From the UHGV virus genome UHGV-0300571: DNA of 13,936 nucleotides; one strand, written 5' to 3'. The notes under the pieces were generated by a model. The model had not been told where the DNA came from. It did no database searches and saw only the letters and a program-made list of their open reading frames with translations. A program made the translations under genes and the position numbers. Positions 7,904 through 13,775 of the stretch are shown here, in pieces. The DNA is from a virus. Numbering within the stretch: the first letter of the stretch is position 1; each line of letters starts with the position of its first letter.

Positions 7904-8151
7904 GCTGTCACCTCTCCGGTTTTAACGTTGATGGTTGTCACCTGTTCCGCTTCGGCAATCTCCCGTTCTGTCAGCGTGGCAAAGTTTGCCGCCGTCGTGG
8001 CCATGAATGCGCTTATCAGTTCGGGATGTGCTTTCGCGTATCCTTCCCCGGCGTGGCGGTCTATCGTTCTGATTGCCACCTTTAAGGCATGCTCTGTCAT
8101 GTCTAATGCGCGATATTTTGGCGCTGTTTTATCTCTGGTTTTTCTGTTCAT
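7900..8151 (-). CDS. Hypothetical protein (84 aa)
   Basis: ATG at 8149-8151 (MNRKTRDK...). Its RBS lies inside the first iteron. Translationally coupled to ssb. No motif I recognise. Confidence 0.45.
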   Translation of the reverse strand: MNRKTRDKTAPKYRALDMTEHALKVAIRTIDRHAGEGYAKAHPELISAFMATTAANFATLTEREIAEAEQVTTINVKTGEVTA

Positions 8152-8349
8152 TCCCCACCACTCCCCACTTTTGTTCCCCACTTTTTAAAATTCCCCACTT
8201 GCTCCCCACCTCGTTTTTTTGTGATTCTAACGTGATGTTTTTCAATGTGTTTTTTACTCCCCACTTTTTTGGGTATATACAGGTGGGAAAGTGGGGAGTA
8301 ACGTTGATTTTTTGTTAAATTCCCCACTCTCCCCACTTTTGTTCCCCAC
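8152..8349. repeat. Replication origin: TCCCCAC iteron clusters flanking an AT-rich segment
   Basis: Direct copies of TCCCCAC (often TCCCCACTTTT) at 8152, 8162, 8175, 8192, 8203, 8258, 8321, 8330 and 8343. An inverted copy GTGGGGAG is at 8291-8298. An AT-rich stretch at 8211-8256 sits between the clusters. The region is immediately 3' of the replication-initiator gene. Confidence 0.7.
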
Positions 8350-8352
8350 TTT

Positions 8353-9768
8353 TTACATCGGGTGAACAGCATCGCCGTCAATAGCGATTACGTCGTCACT
8401 TTCCAGCTTGCGTAACCAGCGACTAAAGTGCTTCATCTCATACCCCAGCTTTTTCATATCATCGCGCAACAACGGAATTGTGCATTTATCGCCGCGCTGT
8501 GTGCGTGAACGGATACAGCCCCATAGTGCGGCATGATTTTCCGTCTTGTTCCCGGCTTCCTCGATGCGTTCCAGTTCAACGGGTGGGCGCGGCTTATCCA
8601 CAACCACCAGTGACGTGATTAACTCCCCGTCAGTGTCGGTAAAAAGCTCCACCACGCGTAAATCATATGCAGCCTCTTTCAGTTCCTCCGCGTCCTTCAT
8701 TTTGGTGCAGGAGATAACCAGGGCTTCACTGTCTGCACCTTCACGGCGAATACGGTATTCAGCGTCCAGAGATGCACGAAATGCACTGGAACCACGCGCC
8801 CCCTTTGTTTCATCCTTGCCGGAATGGTGAACCACCAGTACCGTGGCCCCTGTGCGTCGTTTCAGTTCGTCACATCCACGGATAAACGCCCCCATATCCC
8901 GCGCGTCATTTTCATCATTACCGCCAAAGCAACGCGCCAGCGTATCCAGAATAATCATGCGTACCGGTTTACCCGTTTCCCGTTCAACCTGGCGGGAAGC
9001 GATGACCATTTCATCAACATCAAGCGGGGCTGCCGGAAAAATCGGGCGGTTTACCAGGTACAGATTTTTCACCCGTTCATCATTAACGATTTCCCATGCC
9101 TTGATACGGCGGGGGACACCAATGCCACCTTCACCGACAACATACATCACCGAACCATGCGCAACCCTGCGGCCTCCCCAGTGGCGCCCCGTGGCAACAT
9201 GACACGCCCAGGAACACGCGAGGAATGATTTATAGGAACCGCTCGCGCCGTATGTGCTGCACAACGAATTAGCCGGAATCACGCCCTTAACGACATAATC
9301 AAGCTGTGTGTCGTACCCTGTAGATCCAATACTCATTGGTAGCGTGGTTTTTCGCTGGCTGTATTGCTCGTCAGTAAGTATTTCCCCGCGCTCTGCCTGT
9401 TCGCGGATCCGTTGCAGGTAGTCGTGCCAGTTCTCCAGCTTCTGGCTGTGCATTCCCTCAGGGTAATAATTCGCATCCCGTACACCTGCCGCCGCCAGCT
9501 TTTGCCCGATGGCATTAATATTTGACGGCTTGATGTGGCCTGCCTTGTATAGCCGGACACAATAGCGACCATCGTCGATGATTTTCAGGTCTGCCAGTTC
9601 GTCAAGCTGGCTGTCTCCAAGCCATACAGGTGGCACGTTGTCGCCAGCAAGTCGTCCGTCCTGTTCCTGCCACTGTTTCGCGTGCGCCCAGGCATCACTA
9701 CCCGCAAAAATAATGACTTCGGTCATTTTGTCGTGTGGCTGTTTTTTTAAGTTCGGTGCCAGTTTCAT
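8353..9768 (-). CDS. Replication initiator: N-terminal primase/origin-binding-like region fused to a RecA/DnaB-like (AAA_25-type) ATPase
   Basis: 471 aa. Walker-A-like YGASGSYKSFLA, the motif ...VLVVHHSGKDETKG... and MIILDTLARCFGG, consistent with RepA/DnaB-like helicase loaders of satellite and PICI replication modules. ATG at 9766-9768 overlaps the upstream stop. The iteron origin is directly downstream. Confidence 0.8.
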   Translation of the reverse strand: MKLAPNLKKQPHDKMTEVIIFAGSDAWAHAKQWQEQDGRLAGDNVPPVWLGDSQLDELADLKIIDDGRYCVRLYKAGHIKPSNINAIGQKLAAAGVRDANYYPEGMHSQKLENWHDYLQRIREQAERGEILTDEQYSQRKTTLPMSIGSTGYDTQLDYVVKGVIPANSLCSTYGASGSYKSFLACSWACHVATGRHWGGRRVAHGSVMYVVGEGGIGVPRRIKAWEIVNDERVKNLYLVNRPIFPAAPLDVDEMVIASRQVERETGKPVRMIILDTLARCFGGNDENDARDMGAFIRGCDELKRRTGATVLVVHHSGKDETKGARGSSAFRASLDAEYRIRREGADSEALVISCTKMKDAEELKEAAYDLRVVELFTDTDGELITSLVVVDKPRPPVELERIEEAGNKTENHAALWGCIRSRTQRGDKCTIPLLRDDMKKLGYEMKHFSRWLRKLESDDVIAIDGDAVHPM

Positions 9769-10064
9769 TTTTTGCCCCTGAATGCGTTAATCATGTTTTT
9801 CATTTTCTGAATATTTGCCTGTGCCTTTGCGTTGCTGGTGGGCTGTTTGCGTGGTGTGGCCTGTATCAGTGAAAAATCACGCCGGAACTGATAAACAGGC
9901 ATCACACAGTCATAGCCGTACCCATCACGGCGGTAAGTAACGCACCGTCCTGCCACGCTTTTTATCGTTACCGTGCCGCCGTAGTTATCCCGGAAAATAT
10001 CGCCGGGGTGGATTTCAGGCCGAGCGGGGCCGCTGGCAGTAAAGCCAGAAATTTTCTGTTTCAT
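9765..10064 (-). CDS. Hypothetical protein, possibly DUF4222-like (99 aa)
   Basis: ATG at 10062-10064 with AGGA upstream. The motif ...GDIFRDNYGGTVTIKSVAGRCVTYRRDGYGYDCVMPVYQFRRDF resembles DUF4222 phage proteins from memory. Confidence 0.5.
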   Translation of the reverse strand: MKQKISGFTASGPARPEIHPGDIFRDNYGGTVTIKSVAGRCVTYRRDGYGYDCVMPVYQFRRDFSLIQATPRKQPTSNAKAQANIQKMKNMINAFRGKK

Positions 10065-10069
10065 GGTTT

Positions 10070-10279
10070 TTATTCCTCTGCGCGGGTCTTGTTGTGTATT
10101 TCCATAACCGCGTTTAATTCATCAATAACCGGGGTTAACAGAGTGCTGAAAGCAGAAAATAAATCCCCCCCCTGTTCGGCATGAACTTCGGTTAATTTAA
10201 TTAATACCGCTTTCATTTCCAGTGCCCGATTTAATGCATTCTCAGAATGAATAAGAACATCGAAAGGGATTTTATCCAT
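10070..10279 (-). CDS. Hypothetical small protein (69 aa)
   Basis: ATG at 10277-10279 with GGAGG 9 nt upstream. Contains a G8 homopolymer on the coding strand (plus 10165-10172). Overlaps the upstream gene by 8 nt. Confidence 0.5.
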   Translation of the reverse strand: MDKIPFDVLIHSENALNRALEMKAVLIKLTEVHAEQGGDLFSAFSTLLTPVIDELNAVMEIHNKTRAEE

Positions 10280-10505
10280 GGCTTACATCCTCCGTGAATT
10301 TTCTTCTGTACCGTGCCTCTGCCACATATTCAGCATAGTCCGACGCAATAATAAGAATATCGTTGCCGGTTCCTGAATGTTCAGCGGTTCCAATTAAAAA
10401 ACATGCGGCCTTTATCAGGTCATTAACAGCCAGCAACGCATCGCCTGTATCTTCCGGTGCGCCATCAAATTCCTGTTTCAGGGCATTAAAACGATCATCA
10501 CGCAT
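10272..10505 (-). CDS. Hypothetical small protein (77 aa)
   Basis: ATG at 10503-10505 preceded by a G-rich SD-like stretch. Overlaps the stop of the upstream gene by 8 nt. Weak resemblance to the adjacent 10498-10737 product, suggesting a possible tandem paralog. Confidence 0.45.
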   Translation of the reverse strand: MRDDRFNALKQEFDGAPEDTGDALLAVNDLIKAACFLIGTAEHSGTGNDILIIASDYAEYVAEARYRRKFTEDVSHG

Positions 10506-10737
10506 AACCCCCCCCATTTTCACAATCAGCAATCAGGATGGCTTTAGCCTCATTCAGTGCCATATCAGCACTAAGTTGCATTACAGCCAGTGAATGAGGA
10601 ACGAAAGCCCCGGCATATTCTGTTTCGCTGGTGGCGTGCTTATGCGCCTTGTCTGCGATAACAGAAATATCAATCAGCGCGTGCATCAGCGTTTTGATGG
10701 CTTCGGCGGCTGCGTCCGGACGGGTGTTATTGCACAT
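10498..10737 (-). CDS. Hypothetical small protein (79 aa)
   Basis: ATG at 10735-10737 overlapping the stop of the upstream gene (ATGTGCAATAA). A G8 run lies in its 3' end (plus 10508-10515). Confidence 0.45.
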   Translation of the reverse strand: MCNNTRPDAAAEAIKTLMHALIDISVIADKAHKHATSETEYAGAFVPHSLAVMQLSADMALNEAKAILIADCENGGGYA

Positions 10738-10933
10738 GGCGCACCCCCTGACGAATACGGGCGGCGAATACCATCACACAGCCAGCCGGGGATTGCTGGC
10801 GTGCTTCCTGTTCGCTGGTGGCCTCAATGGTAATCACGCGCGGCTGTGCCGTGCTCAGGGCGATAAAACGCCAGATGTATTTACTCAGGTTGTGCGAGTC
10901 CCGCCCTTGCGGGTGTGTGGTATGATTTAACAT
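10727..10933 (-). CDS. Hypothetical small protein (68 aa), first gene of the minus-strand early operon
   Basis: ATG at 10931-10933 with GAGGT 5 nt upstream. It is the only well-initiated portion of an otherwise implausible 394-aa track ORF. Confidence 0.4.
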   Translation of the reverse strand: MLNHTTHPQGRDSHNLSKYIWRFIALSTAQPRVITIEATSEQEARQQSPAGCVMVFAARIRQGVRHVQ

Positions 10934-11030
10934 AGCTACCTCGATACTTCTGCTATCGTTGGTGGTTAGAAGCCCCGTTACTGCTCCAACAGTGCGGGGT
11001 TTCGTCGTTTCTGTGCCTTGCATTAACAAG

Positions 11031-11111
11031 GTGTAAGACACAATGTAAAATACAAGTGTCTTACACGTCAAGCCTTCAAAATAATTTTTTTTCGTGTATA
11101 TTGTCTTACAC
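11031..11111. promoter_or_regulatory. Divergent promoter/operator region with three GTGT-N3-ACAC operator-like sites
   Basis: GTGTAAGACAC (11031-11041) and its exact reverse complement GTGTCTTACAC (11056-11066), plus TTGTCTTACAC (11101-11111) overlapping a putative -10 (TATATT, 11097-11102) of the plus-strand RHH-like gene. A candidate -35 TTCAAA is at 11075-11080. On the minus strand a possible TTGACG -35 lies at 11067-11072. Confidence 0.5.
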
Positions 11112-11132
11112 CAACAACATAAGGAGTTAGAC

Positions 11133-11312
11133 ATGGCAACAGGTCCAAAGAATGCAAAATCACAATCTGTAACTGCACGTATTGCCCATGAAATTATTGA
11201 AGGCATGGAAAACGTGAAAGAAGAAGGCGAAAGTACAGGGCAGTTTATAAGTGCAGCCATGCGCGGCGAGATCAAACGCCGCCAGCGCCGCAAGGCCAAA
11301 GAGCAGGAGTAA
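11133..11312 (+). CDS. Small DNA-binding protein, ribbon-helix-helix-like (candidate repressor)
   Basis: Strong RBS AAGGAG 7 nt upstream of ATG 11133. The 59-aa product has an RHH-like layout: a beta-strand segment (SQSVTARI), helix A, a G-x-S/T turn (GESTG), helix B, and a basic tail. It is divergent from the early operon and adjacent to the palindromic operators. Confidence 0.5.
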   Translation: MATGPKNAKSQSVTARIAHEIIEGMENVKEEGESTGQFISAAMRGEIKRRQRRKAKEQE

Positions 11313-11369
11313 CCATCACCAGCGCCGTGGTGCGGTGAACTGTGGCGCACAGGGTTACAGGTATCTACG

Positions 11370-11567
11370 ATGACTGACAAATCATTAAAGAAATTATCCT
11401 CATCCAGGAAAAAACAACGCAAAAACGCGGTAAGAGAACATGAACAGGAAAGATTCGCGCCATGTGCGTTTGTCCTTGAAAAGTTCCTTAAAGAGTACAG
11501 GCGCACAAAAATGGGATCGCATGCCTGGAAAACATCGCAGCATGGCGATACTAAAGAGCAGGAATAG
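11370..11567 (+). CDS. Hypothetical basic small protein (65 aa), uncertain
   Basis: ATG at 11370 with only a weak AGG upstream. Very basic product. Followed by an intrinsic terminator at 11670-11699. Confidence 0.3.
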   Translation: MTDKSLKKLSSSRKKQRKNAVREHEQERFAPCAFVLEKFLKEYRRTKMGSHAWKTSQHGDTKEQE

Positions 11568-11669
11568 CCCACCAGCAAGCCAGCGCACTGATCACATTGC
11601 CAACCGGATGTAATCACGGCATAGTAATCAGCGCTTATGCGTTGGGGATAACGTGTAGCTTGTGTTGAA

Positions 11670-11699
11670 GGGCCACCGTAGCGGGTGGCCTTTGTTTTG
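11670..11699 (+). terminator. Rho-independent terminator
   Basis: GGCCACC-GTAGCG-GGTGGCC followed by TTTGTTTTG. Confidence 0.65.
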
Positions 11700-11751
11700 C
11701 CTGTTATCCGGCAATTGTGGCGCTTCGCTACACGGTTGATATAATCCCCCT

Positions 11752-11822
11752 GCACTGATCCAATTTTTTCGCAGCAGGTTAATTGTTCAGAAAGGCGGCT
11801 CCATTTCGGGGCCGCTTTTTTT
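11752..11822 (+). ncRNA. Candidate small RNA (~70 nt), convergent with alpA
   Basis: Extended -10 TGATATAAT at 11737-11745 (with a weak -35 TTGTGG at 11715-11720), then about 45 nt, then a strong intrinsic terminator GGCGGCUCC-AUUU-CGGGGCCGC + U7 (11794-11822). No ORF with an RBS in this interval. Confidence 0.3.
11794..11822 (+). terminator. Rho-independent terminator, possibly bidirectional
   Basis: An 8-bp stem with one G-U pair plus TTTTTTT on the plus strand. On the minus strand the same hairpin is followed by CTTTC, so it could also end the alpA transcript. Confidence 0.7.
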
Positions 11823-11963
11823 ATGCCTGAAAAACCACAATTTTGTTGTTTTCCAGTCTCACCAGGACGAGCGAAGCCCCGCCCCTGTTCGGGCGTATAT
11901 CCAGTCTTCATGGTTAGATCTCTGTATTAGTGGATGGGTGGCGGCTGTGTGCCGCCAGCCTGA

Positions 11964-12152
11964 TTAGTGAACTGCCTCGCAGCTGTCTTTCCATGCCAGA
12001 ACTTCGGATAAAGACCAGCCAACGGAACGACCGCCGAGCTTACGCCGTGATGGGAATTGTCCGGTTTTTTCCAGGCGGTAGCGACATGAGCGGCTCAGGC
12101 CTGTAAGTTGTTGGCATTCTTTTTCACGAATAAAGCGATCTGTGCTTAACAC
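11964..12152 (-). CDS. alpA: AlpA-family (Xis/excisionase-like, winged-helix) transcriptional regulator
   Basis: 62 aa. The motif ...QQLTGLSRSCRYRLEKTGQFPSRRKLGGRSVGWSLSEVLAW... matches the AlpA/phage-excisionase signature. GTG start at 12150-12152 with GGGGGA 6 nt upstream; there is no internal Met. Confidence 0.85.
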   Translation of the reverse strand: MLSTDRFIREKECQQLTGLSRSCRYRLEKTGQFPSRRKLGGRSVGWSLSEVLAWKDSCEAVH

Positions 12153-12522: not shown

Positions 12523-13752
12523 TTATATTTCTCTGGCTATTGGCAGTGTGGTTACGTTTTCGTGAGTACCTGCCAGTATCTCTAACCGCTCTGTCCACAT
12601 GTCCAGCGCATTACGTTTCGCATCGAGATAACGGGAGTGGTTATAGACTCGCTGCATCCCTGGCATCTGGTGAGCGGTGAGTTGTTCGACAATATGCGGA
12701 TCCACGCCTAAATCGTTCAGCATTGTGGTAAACGTGCGCCGTATATCGTGCAGGGACCAGTGAGGATGGTTTAATTTTTTGTGCGTAAATCTGCCGTATT
12801 GTGACACGCTGGCTTCCTGTTTCAGTTCCCCGAGTAATAACCCTGTGTGCCTGTTCTGCTCCACCAGCTGCGTGACGAACGGCAAAATGCTTTCCGGTAT
12901 TGGCCTGAATATGGCGACCTTCGTTTTGCTGTGTTCTTTCGGTACCGTCCAGAGCATTTCCTTAAAATCCCACTCCCTGATCTCCGACAGCCTCAGTTCT
13001 CCGGTTCGGCAGCCAAACACAATCAGGAGGCGGATTAGTGCGCTGTAGTAGGGCGGGAATATTTTTTTATCCAGCGCCTGTAATAATTCGCTCAGTTCTT
13101 TGTTGCTCAGCACGCGTTCGCTTATGCCCGGCTTTTTGCCAACGTCCACCACGTTGAGATCATCCAGAACGTTACTGACTGCGTAGCGACGTTTACGGCA
13201 GAACTTAAGCGCCTGTTTACACGCCTGCATCATGTGACCAGACGTTACGGGGGATTTTTTGCGTATCCGGTCAAAACAGGCCAGCCAGTGACGCAACTCG
13301 CATTTATCCAGTGGCATATTGCCAATATGCTGTATGACGTGATTATTCAGGCGGCTTTTCAGGGAGACGTAATCGACACGGTTTTCCTTTACGTGCATTT
13401 CCAGCCAGTAGCTGATCGCATCACCCACCGTTACCGGCTTTAGTGCTTCCTGTATGGAGTAATTAAGCTCATGGCGTGGATTTTTTCCCTCTGCCAGCCA
13501 TGCGCGACACTGTGCTGCTTTTTCTCTGGCTGCTTTCAGGCTCAGATCAGGATAATTTCCCAGCTTCAGGCGTTCCGGTGATACCTGGCGTCCTGTTCCT
13601 GCCCTGTAGGTGAAATACCAGGTTAACAGGCCGCTGGTGGAGTGTCTGATACTCAGGTTTCCACCGTCATTAAGAAATGTGGTTTTTGGGGCTGGTGTGC
13701 CGTTGATTTTTCTTAGCTGTGTATCGCTCAGTTTGTTAAGTGCTCTGCTCAT
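12523..13752 (-). CDS. int: Tyrosine site-specific integrase (P4-like family)
   Basis: Arm-binding-like N-terminal domain (...LSDTQLRKINGTPAPKTTFLNDGGNLSIRHSTSGLLTWYFTYR...) and a C-terminal catalytic region with ...HDIRRTF...HQMPGMQRVYNHSRY... (catalytic Tyr context). Start is uncertain: ATG at 13750-13752 is preferred, with in-frame ATG at 13770 and GTG at 13773 as alternatives. Confidence 0.9.
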   Translation of the reverse strand: MSRALNKLSDTQLRKINGTPAPKTTFLNDGGNLSIRHSTSGLLTWYFTYRAGTGRQVSPERLKLGNYPDLSLKAAREKAAQCRAWLAEGKNPRHELNYSIQEALKPVTVGDAISYWLEMHVKENRVDYVSLKSRLNNHVIQHIGNMPLDKCELRHWLACFDRIRKKSPVTSGHMMQACKQALKFCRKRRYAVSNVLDDLNVVDVGKKPGISERVLSNKELSELLQALDKKIFPPYYSALIRLLIVFGCRTGELRLSEIREWDFKEMLWTVPKEHSKTKVAIFRPIPESILPFVTQLVEQNRHTGLLLGELKQEASVSQYGRFTHKKLNHPHWSLHDIRRTFTTMLNDLGVDPHIVEQLTAHQMPGMQRVYNHSRYLDAKRNALDMWTERLEILAGTHENVTTLPIAREI

Positions 13753-13775
13753 AATTTTGAATCCGGTCATCACAA

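Follow-up and report, generated by a model that had tools for sequence, protein, structure and literature searches.

Two runs of eight guanines lie among the small genes upstream of the replication helicase gene in UHGV virus genome UHGV-0300571, which raises the question of what these runs do to the genes that carry them and whether changes in their length are real, inherited, and selected. The window is the whole 13,936-nucleotide stretch analyzed. Both runs read as C8 on the plus strand and sit where the initial annotation had placed them, one within a coding sequence (10165..10172; tract 2) and the other at a gene junction (10508..10515; tract 1). They are the only G/C runs of at least seven bases in the window. 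By composition alone, two G8 runs are not striking (0.45 expected per window; two or more in 24 of 200 shuffles). It is the comparison with relatives that makes them significant. Only two other G/C runs of at least seven bases are found in ~480 kb of related islands.

The satellite and its leftward early operon

The element is a capsid-forming PICI (cf-PICI) of E. coli, and the satellite setting proposed in the initial annotation agrees with its gene set. A tyrosine recombinase ORF (12523-13773) and an AlpA-type regulator (11964-12152; PF05930 Phage_AlpA, E = 3e-18) lie at one end. The replication module comprises a RepA-family helicase, or replicase (8353..9768, minus strand; PF13481 AAA_25, E = 6e-44; phrog_2850), which is the last cluster gene analyzed, together with SSB (7478-7903) and iteron-like repeats (8140-8355). 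The element carries its own capsid and packaging genes, without tail or lysis genes, at the size of a ~10-17 kb island; Pfam matches were obtained for all six of the major capsid, protease, portal, connector, TerS, and TerL proteins. Fragments of Fic and Mg-chelatase genes flank the island in the closest complete genome, where no tail genes are annotated for it. Helper-phage-dependent induction and the use of helper tails are putative features of the element. Rfam searches at permissive thresholds returned only two spurious miRNA-like matches, both on the iteron region, and no tRNA or tmRNA was found.

The minus-strand ORFs g1-g5 lie nearest the promoter in the probable leftward early (replication) operon. 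They encode proteins of 68, 79, 77, 69, and 99 aa. All five are conserved as coding sequences and already have database entries (Icd-like, three hypothetical proteins, and DUF4222). The operon would run from the Icd-like g1 through g2, g3, g4, and the DUF4222 gene g5 to the RepA helicase. The small genes had been described as overlapping one another, which is true of g1/g2 (11 nt), g2/g3 (8 nt), and g3/g4 (8 nt) but not of g4 and g5, which are separated by a 5-nt spacer. The g5 stop overlaps the repA start by 4 nt (ATGA). Co-oriented genes, a promoter-like site, three operator-like repeats, and the lack of a terminator between the genes are consistent with the earlier proposal of one operator-controlled early transcript, on which g1-g5 and the helicase gene are probably carried together.

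A promoter scan places the leftward promoter-like site, TTGACG-18-TACATT, at 11071-11042. The three 11-bp operator-like repeats found by repeat search, GTGTAAGACA(C)/TGTCTTACAC (11030-11041, 11056-11066, and 11102-11112; span 11030..11112), flank or overlap divergent promoter-like sites between g1 and the divergent gene of a 59-aa YlcI/YnfO-family protein (11133..11312, plus strand; NF041551, 66.8 bits vs. a cutoff of 30). Across loci, the repeat sequence co-varies with the variant of the YlcI-like protein, which is a likely candidate for the operator-binding regulator. A 394-aa ORF at 10727-11911 was dismissed as a mechanical artefact, since its upstream in-frame ATG reads antisense through the YlcI-like gene.

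The first gene, g1 (10727..10933, minus strand), encodes a 68-aa Icd-like protein that scores 69.8 bits against NCBIfam NF033153 phage_ICD_like (curated cutoff 25) and matches phrog_6196 (E = 1e-44). A GAGGT Shine-Dalgarno lies upstream, the exact protein is present in public databases, and dN/dS is ~0.19, a value based on few sequences. PHROGs labels this family 'transcriptional repressor'. The 99-aa product of g5 (9765..10064, minus strand) belongs to DUF4222 (Pfam PF13973; 85.2 bits vs. a gathering score of 27) and combines an SH3/Tudor/KOW-like beta-barrel with a basic C-terminal helix. PDB sequence searches with g1 and g5 gave no match, and g2, g3, and g4 had no matches in Pfam, NCBIfam, or PADLOC. 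The roles in helper interference, derepression, or anti-defence once suggested for these genes received no support from any homology or fold search.

One protein or two: g2 and g3

In the G8 allele, g2 (10498..10737, minus strand) encodes a 79-aa helical hairpin that matches phrog_5146 and positions 1-76 of the 154 in phrog_2512. Its neighbor g3 (10272..10505, minus strand) encodes 77 aa from the ATG at 10505, with other in-frame starts at 10517 and 10532, and matches phrog_24341 and positions 75-153 of phrog_2512. The initial annotation overlooked that g2 and g3 are the halves of one 154/155-aa protein in many strains, with the junction G run as the switch. It had instead considered two adjacent products weakly similar and possibly tandem duplicates, a suggestion that is not supported: g2 vs. 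g3 gives a BLASTP E of 12, and hhalign comparison of family profiles gives a probability below 1% for all ten pairs among g1-g5.

Tract 1 encodes the terminal Gly residues of g2 and probably serves as the G-rich Shine-Dalgarno of g3. G-rich Shine-Dalgarno sequences also precede g2 (AGGGGG), g4 (GGAGGA), g5 (GAGGAA), and rep (AGGGG), and islands with other downstream genes have a G-rich stretch before the ATG of that gene. An in silico length series shows that the run sets the frame relation of the two genes: g3 is in the +1 frame of g2 at G8 and in the -1 frame at G9, and the two are fused into 154/155 aa at G7 or G10. With G8, as in the window, or G11, two proteins would be made, translationally coupled through ATGCGTGA, in which the g3 ATG overlaps the g2 stop. 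With G7 or G10, the product would be a single tethered two-domain protein. With G9, g2 would gain a nine-residue tail and g3 would have to start on its own; we assume that g3 is translated from this frame.

Fused and separate forms are both represented among relatives. The best 120 database matches are nearly all 154/155 aa, with a joint that reads ..ENGG(G)VMRDD.., and relatives at no more than 55% identity are all stand-alone halves, whose C halves begin at the same Met as g3. These comparisons show a split ancestry for g2 and g3. A seemingly distant fused homologue of 141 aa (P0126) proved to be a differently frameshifted ORF, not a true fusion. The fused protein had no tblastn match in GenBank phages and no relatives in a scan of one genome per species. 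The identities of g2 and g3 vary independently between loci. Their occurrence as tethered modules in some alleles and as separate proteins in others argues that they work as a pair; they are probably physical partners whose products presumably form a joint helical complex. AF2 models the fused form, with moderate confidence (pLDDT 68, pTM 0.46), as two helical hairpins joined at tract 1, with g2 helices at 9-37 and 39-73. Foldseek of this model against the PDB found only generic helical hairpins (best E 1.5).

The full-length homologues could also mean that g2 and g3 are pseudogene fragments of a single 154-aa gene that carries a frameshift mutation or was misread in sequencing. This account draws on the length of the best-scoring matches to the fused translation, on the homopolymer errors that exist in some assemblies (EcN_Sk), and on the neighboring slot gene, which PGAP marks as frameshifted in the closest complete genome. 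However, it does not fit the stand-alone halves of distant relatives or the canonical coupled junction that G8 creates. The same junction is seen where the tract is interrupted and stable: in 'locked' split alleles carrying GGGGGTGG, both ORFs are intact at 66% amino-acid identity. G8 is found in 57 independent assemblies and is the most frequent length among metagenome contigs, and the exact 79-aa g2 and 77-aa g3 proteins are present on 53 and 8 contigs, respectively. Both halves are intact in 57 of 57 tract-bearing loci. dN/dS is 0.23 for g2 and 0.21 for g3, with the same values for in-frame and out-of-frame alleles, and the 32 out-of-frame loci show neither relaxed dN/dS nor secondary lesions. 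A broken gene is a most improbable explanation.

Recoding at the level of expression could likewise join the two frames. Tract 1 would then be a programmed slippery site (+1 at G8, -1 at G9) or a site of RNA polymerase stuttering, so that every allele would yield both the fused and the separate products at a fixed ratio, as in the IS1/IS3 transposases and dnaX. The frame geometry fits, tRNA-Gly can re-pair in any frame on a G run, and the 39 nt downstream of tract 1 are almost invariant. However, relatives share the same run length at programmed sites, whereas tract 1 ranges from G7 to G12 overall. Despite the conserved downstream sequence, no conserved stimulatory RNA structure (116-nt region fold, z = -0.86) or internal Shine-Dalgarno at a suitable distance was found, and no significant RNA structure surrounds either tract. 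The efficient sites of ribosomal slippage or polymerase stuttering known from E. coli are A/T-rich. Variation in the DNA already yields both forms, and programmed recoding is very unlikely to be the explanation.

Run length, inheritance, and selection

The tract 1 junction is present in 737 of 5,426 complete E. coli genomes, with G7, G8, G9, and G10 in 383, 204, 182, and 28 records, counts that are inflated by clonal lineages. IMG/VR loci have G7 (21), G8 (15), G9 (14), G10 (4), and G11 (2), and metagenome contigs, most with SPAdes-style names, have G7 (9), G8 (25), G9 (12), and G10 (1). By unique haplotype, the series is 13, 12, 10, 3, and 2, without three-base periodicity. Run length is inherited: identical 1.2-kb haplotypes have equal lengths, and all 57 assemblies of the Nissle/ATCC 25922 lineage, many of them laboratory derivatives, are identical with G8, although as consensus assemblies they place no useful bound on switching in subpopulations. 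One genome with two islands has G7 in one and G9 in the other. Among coding haplotypes with several members (identical 453-nt g2+g3), four of seven are mixed in length, and two of these four span a fused and an unfused frame; tract 1 thus changes faster than point substitutions accumulate. The identical 1.2-kb haplotypes, the 57 G8 assemblies, and the metagenome contigs rule out sequencing error as the general cause of the variation. The EcN_Sk assembly has three single-base deletions in 2 kb, which are homopolymer sequencing errors.

Tract 2 lies in g4 (10070..10279, minus strand; phrog_2196), whose 69-aa product is intact (ON) in the window and occupies a variable slot that holds another gene in most related islands. 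The run encodes a Gly-Gly loop between two predicted helices, and lengths other than 5, 8, or 11 truncate the protein. By alignment span, the ten complete genomes with this context divide into three with G9, three with G7, two with G8 (one of them exact, the other with a mismatch), and one each with G6 and G5, and database peptides extend the range to G5-G12. Individual loci have G7 (L013), a frameshifting G9 (L045), and a G9 that resulted from an A-to-G substitution and leaves the frame intact (L026). The 67 database clusters of g4 include in-frame forms of 68, 69, and 70 aa and frameshifted forms of 46-52 aa, and ~40% of tract-bearing alleles are truncated (OFF). Slippage at tract 2 would act as an ON/OFF switch between full-length and truncated g4.

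These comparisons establish the anatomy of the locus, its length polymorphism, its heritability, and purifying selection on its genes. At both G8 runs, the DNA has a genuine slipped-strand hot spot whose length is inherited, in line with the initial annotation, which had proposed comparing homopolymer length across isolates; this length varies widely in complete genomes, IMG/VR, and metagenomes. With dN/dS of ~0.2 and a variable run length, neither of the two outcomes named in advance as contrary, missing purifying selection and an invariant homopolymer, was observed.

Tract 1 also stands out in its surroundings. It sits in a nearly invariant block of ~90 nt (10468..10557, minus strand), which is a recombination breakpoint between g2 and g3 allele families. 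Column conservation is 0.93-1.00 in this block and 0.73-0.88 elsewhere, synonymous diversity (pS) is 0.009 in the first 13 codons of g3 vs. 0.42 in the rest, and the run is uninterrupted in >90% of copies. The uninterrupted run and the frozen synonymous sites beside it suggest additional selection at the nucleotide level, which neutral drift does not explain.

One alternative is that the G runs are contingency loci kept by selection, through which a satellite population would always include variants with g2-g3 fused, split, or uncoupled and g4 on or off, as a hedge against changes in helper phages or host defences. Adjacent genes hold the two hypermutable runs, in islands with only two other such runs in ~480 kb, and tract 1 has remained unbroken even between allele families whose protein sequences differ by as much as 50%, with its three frames at nearly equal frequency. 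The OFF fraction of g4 and the frozen synonymous sites point the same way, and homopolymer switches are an established mechanism (PMC2831843). However, G8 is constant throughout the 57 assemblies of one lineage, and the conservation near tract 1 can be explained by translation initiation or recombination. E. coli is proficient in mismatch repair, and slippage rates at G8 are modest. Moreover, tract 1 abolishes neither ORF, so its 'phases' may be functionally equivalent. Adaptive phase variation is possible but rather unlikely. A more specific version, in which the two runs are selected switches whose continual slippage leaves g2-g3 fused, split, or uncoupled and g4 on or off and so tunes the response to, or interference with, helpers or host defences, is a speculative and unlikely proposal; if true, it would be the first simple-sequence phase variation described in a satellite, and a rare case for E. 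coli.

The explanation that we favor, and regard as probable, is that the runs are heritable slipped-strand hot spots, with the tract 1 frames tolerated and drifting and tract 2 switching g4 ON and OFF. Since g3 retains a start codon and a probable ribosome-binding site of its own, and its product presumably works with that of g2, all three frames seem tolerated and tract 1 length would drift. Tolerance is what the equal dN/dS in all frames suggests, but rapid switching may also produce this equality.

About one in seven E. coli genomes has the tract 1 junction, including Nissle 1917, ATCC 25922, O157:H7, and strain 042. Annotation pipelines disagree on g2/g3, calling one gene in some cases, two in others, and a frameshifted pseudogene in still others; a rule based on run length would settle this. 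The alleles form a natural series in which the proteins are tethered or separate, providing ready-made constructs for studying what they contribute to satellite replication or helper interaction. Were the variation in length adaptive, contingency-locus biology would extend to phage satellites and E. coli. If it is neutral, the locus is a clean example of a G-rich ribosome-binding site in a coding region that has grown into a mutational hot spot for gene fusion and splitting.

Comparison with known systems

In type and layout, the element is the same as the EcCIEDL933-type cf-PICIs of Enterobacteria, with int, alpA, a divergent YlcI/YnfO-like gene, an Icd-like gene, small genes, primase/helicase, capsid, protease, portal, connector, TerS, and TerL (bioRxiv 10.1101/2025.02.11.637232; PMC13612085). 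Icd-like and YlcI/YnfO genes are described there as accessory genes of cf-PICIs, and the region downstream of alpA is termed variable and of unknown function; the two sources contain no description of the small genes g2-g5 or of the G runs (bioRxiv 10.1101/2025.02.11.637232; PMC13612085). The Icd-like domain match of g1 suggests a likeness, at the family level, to Icd of phage P1, a cell-division inhibitor from the immI operon. Both icd and g1 are the first small gene of an operon with immunity-type control. Unlike P1 immI, the window has no c4/CI-type antisense RNA by Rfam and no ant gene.

As in Rosetta-stone pairs, the two modules of g2/g3 are fused in some genomes and encoded by adjacent genes in others, a pattern commonly taken to point to physical or functional partnership. 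Unlike the usual pairs, both states of g2/g3 occur within one species. IS1 InsA/InsAB', IS3 OrfA/OrfAB, and dnaX tau/gamma are two-ORF genes joined by frameshifting. They resemble g2/g3 in having overlapping frames that are separate or fused by a one-base shift at a homopolymer-like run. In those genes, it is the ribosome or RNA polymerase that shifts, at a conserved site that is often accompanied by a stimulatory structure, whereas in g2/g3 the shift is written in the DNA, at a run whose length is not conserved and for which no stimulator was found.

Phase-variable or hypermutable genes with homopolymeric tracts include poly-G contingency loci in Neisseria, Campylobacter, and Haemophilus, as well as inlA of Listeria with its poly(A) tract (PMC2831843). 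Here too, a mononucleotide run lies within coding sequence, and slippage shifts the reading frame, as seen in the in silico length series and the frameshifted g4 peptides. Run length is likewise polymorphic between isolates and outpaces point substitutions in the flanking sequence. The locus is a variant of homopolymer slippage polymorphism. It differs from the Neisseria-type loci in its setting, a phage satellite of E. coli rather than a surface or virulence gene. Tract 2 in g4 would act as a classical ON/OFF tract, as in the poly-G loci, whereas tract 1 switches no gene off and would instead convert coupled genes into a fused protein and back, with an uncoupled third frame.

A probable early operon of conserved genes with two G runs

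Judged by its gene content, the window is a capsid-forming PICI: integrase, AlpA, a divergent YlcI/YnfO-like gene (11133-11312), five small genes, a RepA helicase and SSB are followed by the major capsid protein, prohead protease, portal, connector, HNH, TerS and TerL. The closest island, from E. coli TUM9757, is 96.8% identical across 92% of the window length, and about 1,950 of 5,426 complete E. coli genomes contain related islands. The five small genes lie on the minus strand: g1 (10727-10933, 68 aa), g2 (10498-10737, 79 aa), g3 (10272-10505, 77 aa, with extra in-frame starts at 10517 and 10532), g4 (10070-10279, 69 aa) and g5 (9765-10064, 99 aa), ahead of the RepA-type helicase on the same strand (8353-9768, 471 aa). 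The chain of overlapping genes described in the initial annotation holds for g1/g2 (11 nt), g2/g3 (8 nt), g3/g4 (8 nt) and g5/rep (4 nt), whereas g4 and g5 are separated by a 5-nt gap. No terminator-like site is found on the coding strand within the five genes. A 394-aa ORF in the mechanical ORF list (10727-11911) is g1 stretched upstream across the intergenic gap, antisense to the YlcI-like gene, and is not a gene.

The five genes are real. The exact sequences of all five proteins are already in public databases, and dN/dS is 0.23 for g2, 0.21 for g3, 0.37 for g5 and about 0.19 for g1 (few sequences); g4 belongs to a conserved protein family of 67 clusters, with too few close DNA relatives for dN/dS. 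The product of g1 is Icd-like (NF033153, 69.8 bits) and g5 is DUF4222; the sole matches of g2, g3 and g4 are PHROG families of unknown function, with no defence, anti-defence or structural homology found. No two of the five proteins resemble each other, which leaves the suspected tandem duplication unsupported. The common layout of 80 related IMG/VR loci is ylcI, g1, g2, g3, a variable slot, g5 and a replicase, with either a RepA helicase or a P4-type primase in the last position. Another gene replaces g3 behind g2 in about 18 of these loci, and four stop before g5.

The 200-nt gap between g1 and the YlcI-like gene contains divergent promoter-like sites and three copies of GTGTAAGACA(C) that flank or overlap them (11030-11112). 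Across 57 islands this 10-mer, present in two to three copies and fitting a GTG-N5-CA frame, changes in step with the variant of the YlcI-like protein rather than with g1; three GTGTAAGACA copies are present in every locus whose YlcI is at least 98% identical. This co-variation suggests that the YlcI-like protein is likely an operator-binding regulator with several specificity types, and it lends indirect support to the operator-controlled promoter proposed earlier.

Two other features adjoin the replicase gene. The DUF4222 product is modelled as an SH3/Tudor/KOW-like beta-barrel carrying a basic helix at its C terminus; its gene adjoins the replicase gene in 76 of the 80 loci, the remaining four ending before g5. 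In the window, Nissle 1917 and TUM9757, the g5 stop overlaps the start of the replicase gene, with RepA helicase and P4-type primase alike. The stretch just beyond the repA stop (8140-8355) contains some ten copies of (T)TCCCCAC(TTT), facing both ways and grouped into two 48-nt blocks that are 168 nt apart; it is a candidate replication origin of the iteron type. Two miRNA-like Rfam matches there are spurious and accounted for by these repeats.

Length polymorphism of the junction run

The two C8 runs (G8 on the coding strand) noted initially are present at 10165-10172, inside g4, and 10508-10515, where g2 and g3 meet, and are the sole G/C runs of at least 7 nt in the window. Their presence is not significant in itself, since two such runs are expected from composition in about 12% of shuffles. 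The length of the junction run varies between isolates in three collections. IMG/VR contigs comprise G7 (21), G8 (15), G9 (14), G10 (4) and G11 (2), and all but two tract-bearing loci share the flanks GATTGTGAAAAT and TTATGCGTGA, the exceptions reading TTATGCTTGA. Among complete E. coli genomes, the junction occurs in 737 of 5,426, at 883 places; exact-match records, in a census covering G7-G10, number 383, 204, 182 and 28, with O157:H7 among G7, Nissle 1917 among G8 and strain 042 among G10. Metagenome contigs, most with SPAdes-style NODE names, give 9, 25, 12, 1 and 0 for G7 to G11, and the run is interrupted in two of these contigs. The invariant length that would have refuted the initial annotation is clearly not what is seen.

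The initial annotation left open whether the runs are slipped-strand sites or sequencing-error hotspots. A sequencing artefact is ruled out by three observations: 57 assemblies of the Nissle 1917/ATCC 25922 lineage, produced in many laboratories, agree at every position of a 2,001-nt stretch that spans the G8 run, identical 1.2-kb flanks carry the same run length, and genome E2865 has two islands, one G7 and one G9. The lengths are heritable. Errors are real, although erroneous assemblies are a small minority: compared with more than ten other Nissle assemblies, EcN_Sk has three single-base deletions within 2 kb, all in homopolymers (G5, A8 and G8), that look like long-read homopolymer error. 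They are a warning for assembly-based censuses of run length.

The run changes faster than point substitutions. Among the g2+g3 coding haplotypes, seven recur and four of these are mixed in length, and pairs only 1-3 nt apart in 1,200 nt differ in run length. Counted by unique haplotype, G7 to G11 number 13, 12, 10, 3 and 2, a smooth fall-off without three-base periodicity that speaks against selection for a particular frame.

Fused and split forms of g2 and g3

Removing one G from the junction run or adding two yields a single ORF of 154 or 155 aa. Of the 154 residues in the PHROG 2512 profile, g2 accounts for positions 1-76 and g3 for positions 75-153. With the fusion as query, 476 proteins are found; almost all of the 120 best-scoring ones have 154 or 155 aa, the joint reading ENGGVMRDD in the shorter form and ENGGGVMRDD in the longer. 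Therefore, relative to g2, g3 is in frame +1 at G8 and -1 at G9, and many strains encode the pair as a single gene. Neither the fused nor the split state is broken: both halves are intact in 57 of 57 tract-bearing loci in any frame (74 codons; 77 or 73 codons), and dN/dS is equal for in-frame and out-of-frame alleles. The polymorphism is well established, and so is the fused/split architecture. That the same pair exists fused and split implies that g2 and g3 act together. The AF2 model of the fusion has two helical hairpins joined at the run by a low-confidence linker (pLDDT 68).

An exhaustive search of 1.84 billion cluster representatives finds only 48 relatives, and every one at 55% identity or below is a stand-alone N half or C half, the C halves starting at the same Met directly after the run. 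In some islands the run is interrupted (GGGGGTGG) and the frame split, with g3 only 66% identical but intact; in others a different gene follows g2, or a short G4 keeps the two in the fused frame. The ancestral design is thus two coupled genes, and the fusion is derived from it and can arise by slippage.

In the G8 form, the stop of g2 and the start of g3 overlap (ATGCGTGA), and only 2 nt separate the run from the g3 ATG downstream. Direct sequence reading gives G-rich Shine-Dalgarno sequences for g2 (AGGGGG), g4 (GGAGGA), g5 (GAGGAA) and rep (AGGGG), and islands with other downstream genes retain a G-rich stretch at the run position. Because G-rich sequence precedes the ATG across islands, the run could serve as the g3 Shine-Dalgarno, g3 would be translated in every frame, and the frame would only set whether g3 is tethered to g2. 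All frames may thus be tolerated.

About 90 nt around the junction run (10468-10557) are nearly invariant, compared with 73-88% conservation per column in the remainder of g2 and g3. Synonymous diversity is 0.009 in the first 13 codons of g3, about 45-fold lower than in the rest of the gene, 0.17 in the last 14 codons of g2 and 0.40-0.42 elsewhere in both genes. The block coincides with the recombination breakpoint that separates the g2 from the g3 allele families, across which alleles recombine freely, and no significant RNA fold is found around the run. Translation-initiation constraint, homogenisation at a recombination hinge and overlapping-frame constraint are three candidate causes.

In the Nissle/ATCC 25922 island, an A8 lies at the junction of an extra small gene and g2 (2283-2290 of the Nissle 1917 locus, L081). 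Laboratory strain 25DN has A7 there, which fuses both ORFs into one 441-nt CDS; homopolymer-driven fusion of adjacent small genes is therefore not unique to the G run.

The g4 run and comparison with known systems

The second run encodes a Gly-Gly loop between two predicted helices of g4. Database proteins include in-frame forms with EQGDL (68 aa), EQGGDL (69 aa) and EQGGGDL (70 aa) and frameshifted forms of 46-52 aa; together these peptides imply lengths from G5 to G12, in keeping with the slippage initially suspected. About 40% of member sequences in tract-bearing g4 clusters are truncated (tallied by cluster size). This allele context is present in only ten complete genomes, whose alignment spans fit G8 in two (an exact match and one with a mismatch), G9 and G7 in three each, and G6 and G5 in one each. 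In more remote 75-aa homologues the loop is acidic and lacks the run. Slippage here acts as a simple ON/OFF switch of an accessory gene, which is ON in the window. The slot between g3 and g5 holds unrelated small genes in different islands (L001-L080 and L133), and its TUM9757 occupant is annotated as a frameshifted pseudogene.

Two cf-PICI papers list Icd-like and YlcI/YnfO only as accessory genes and do not mention the G runs (bioRxiv 10.1101/2025.02.11.637232; PMC13612085). A full-text literature search for satellites or prophages with homopolymer phase variation likewise returned no report of them. Unlike programmed frameshift sites, the junction run is not conserved in length and has no stimulator. 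The g2-g4 runs instead share their mechanism, homopolymer slippage, with contingency loci and the Listeria inlA tract (PMC2831843), and they have the structural and population features of a slipped-strand contingency locus.
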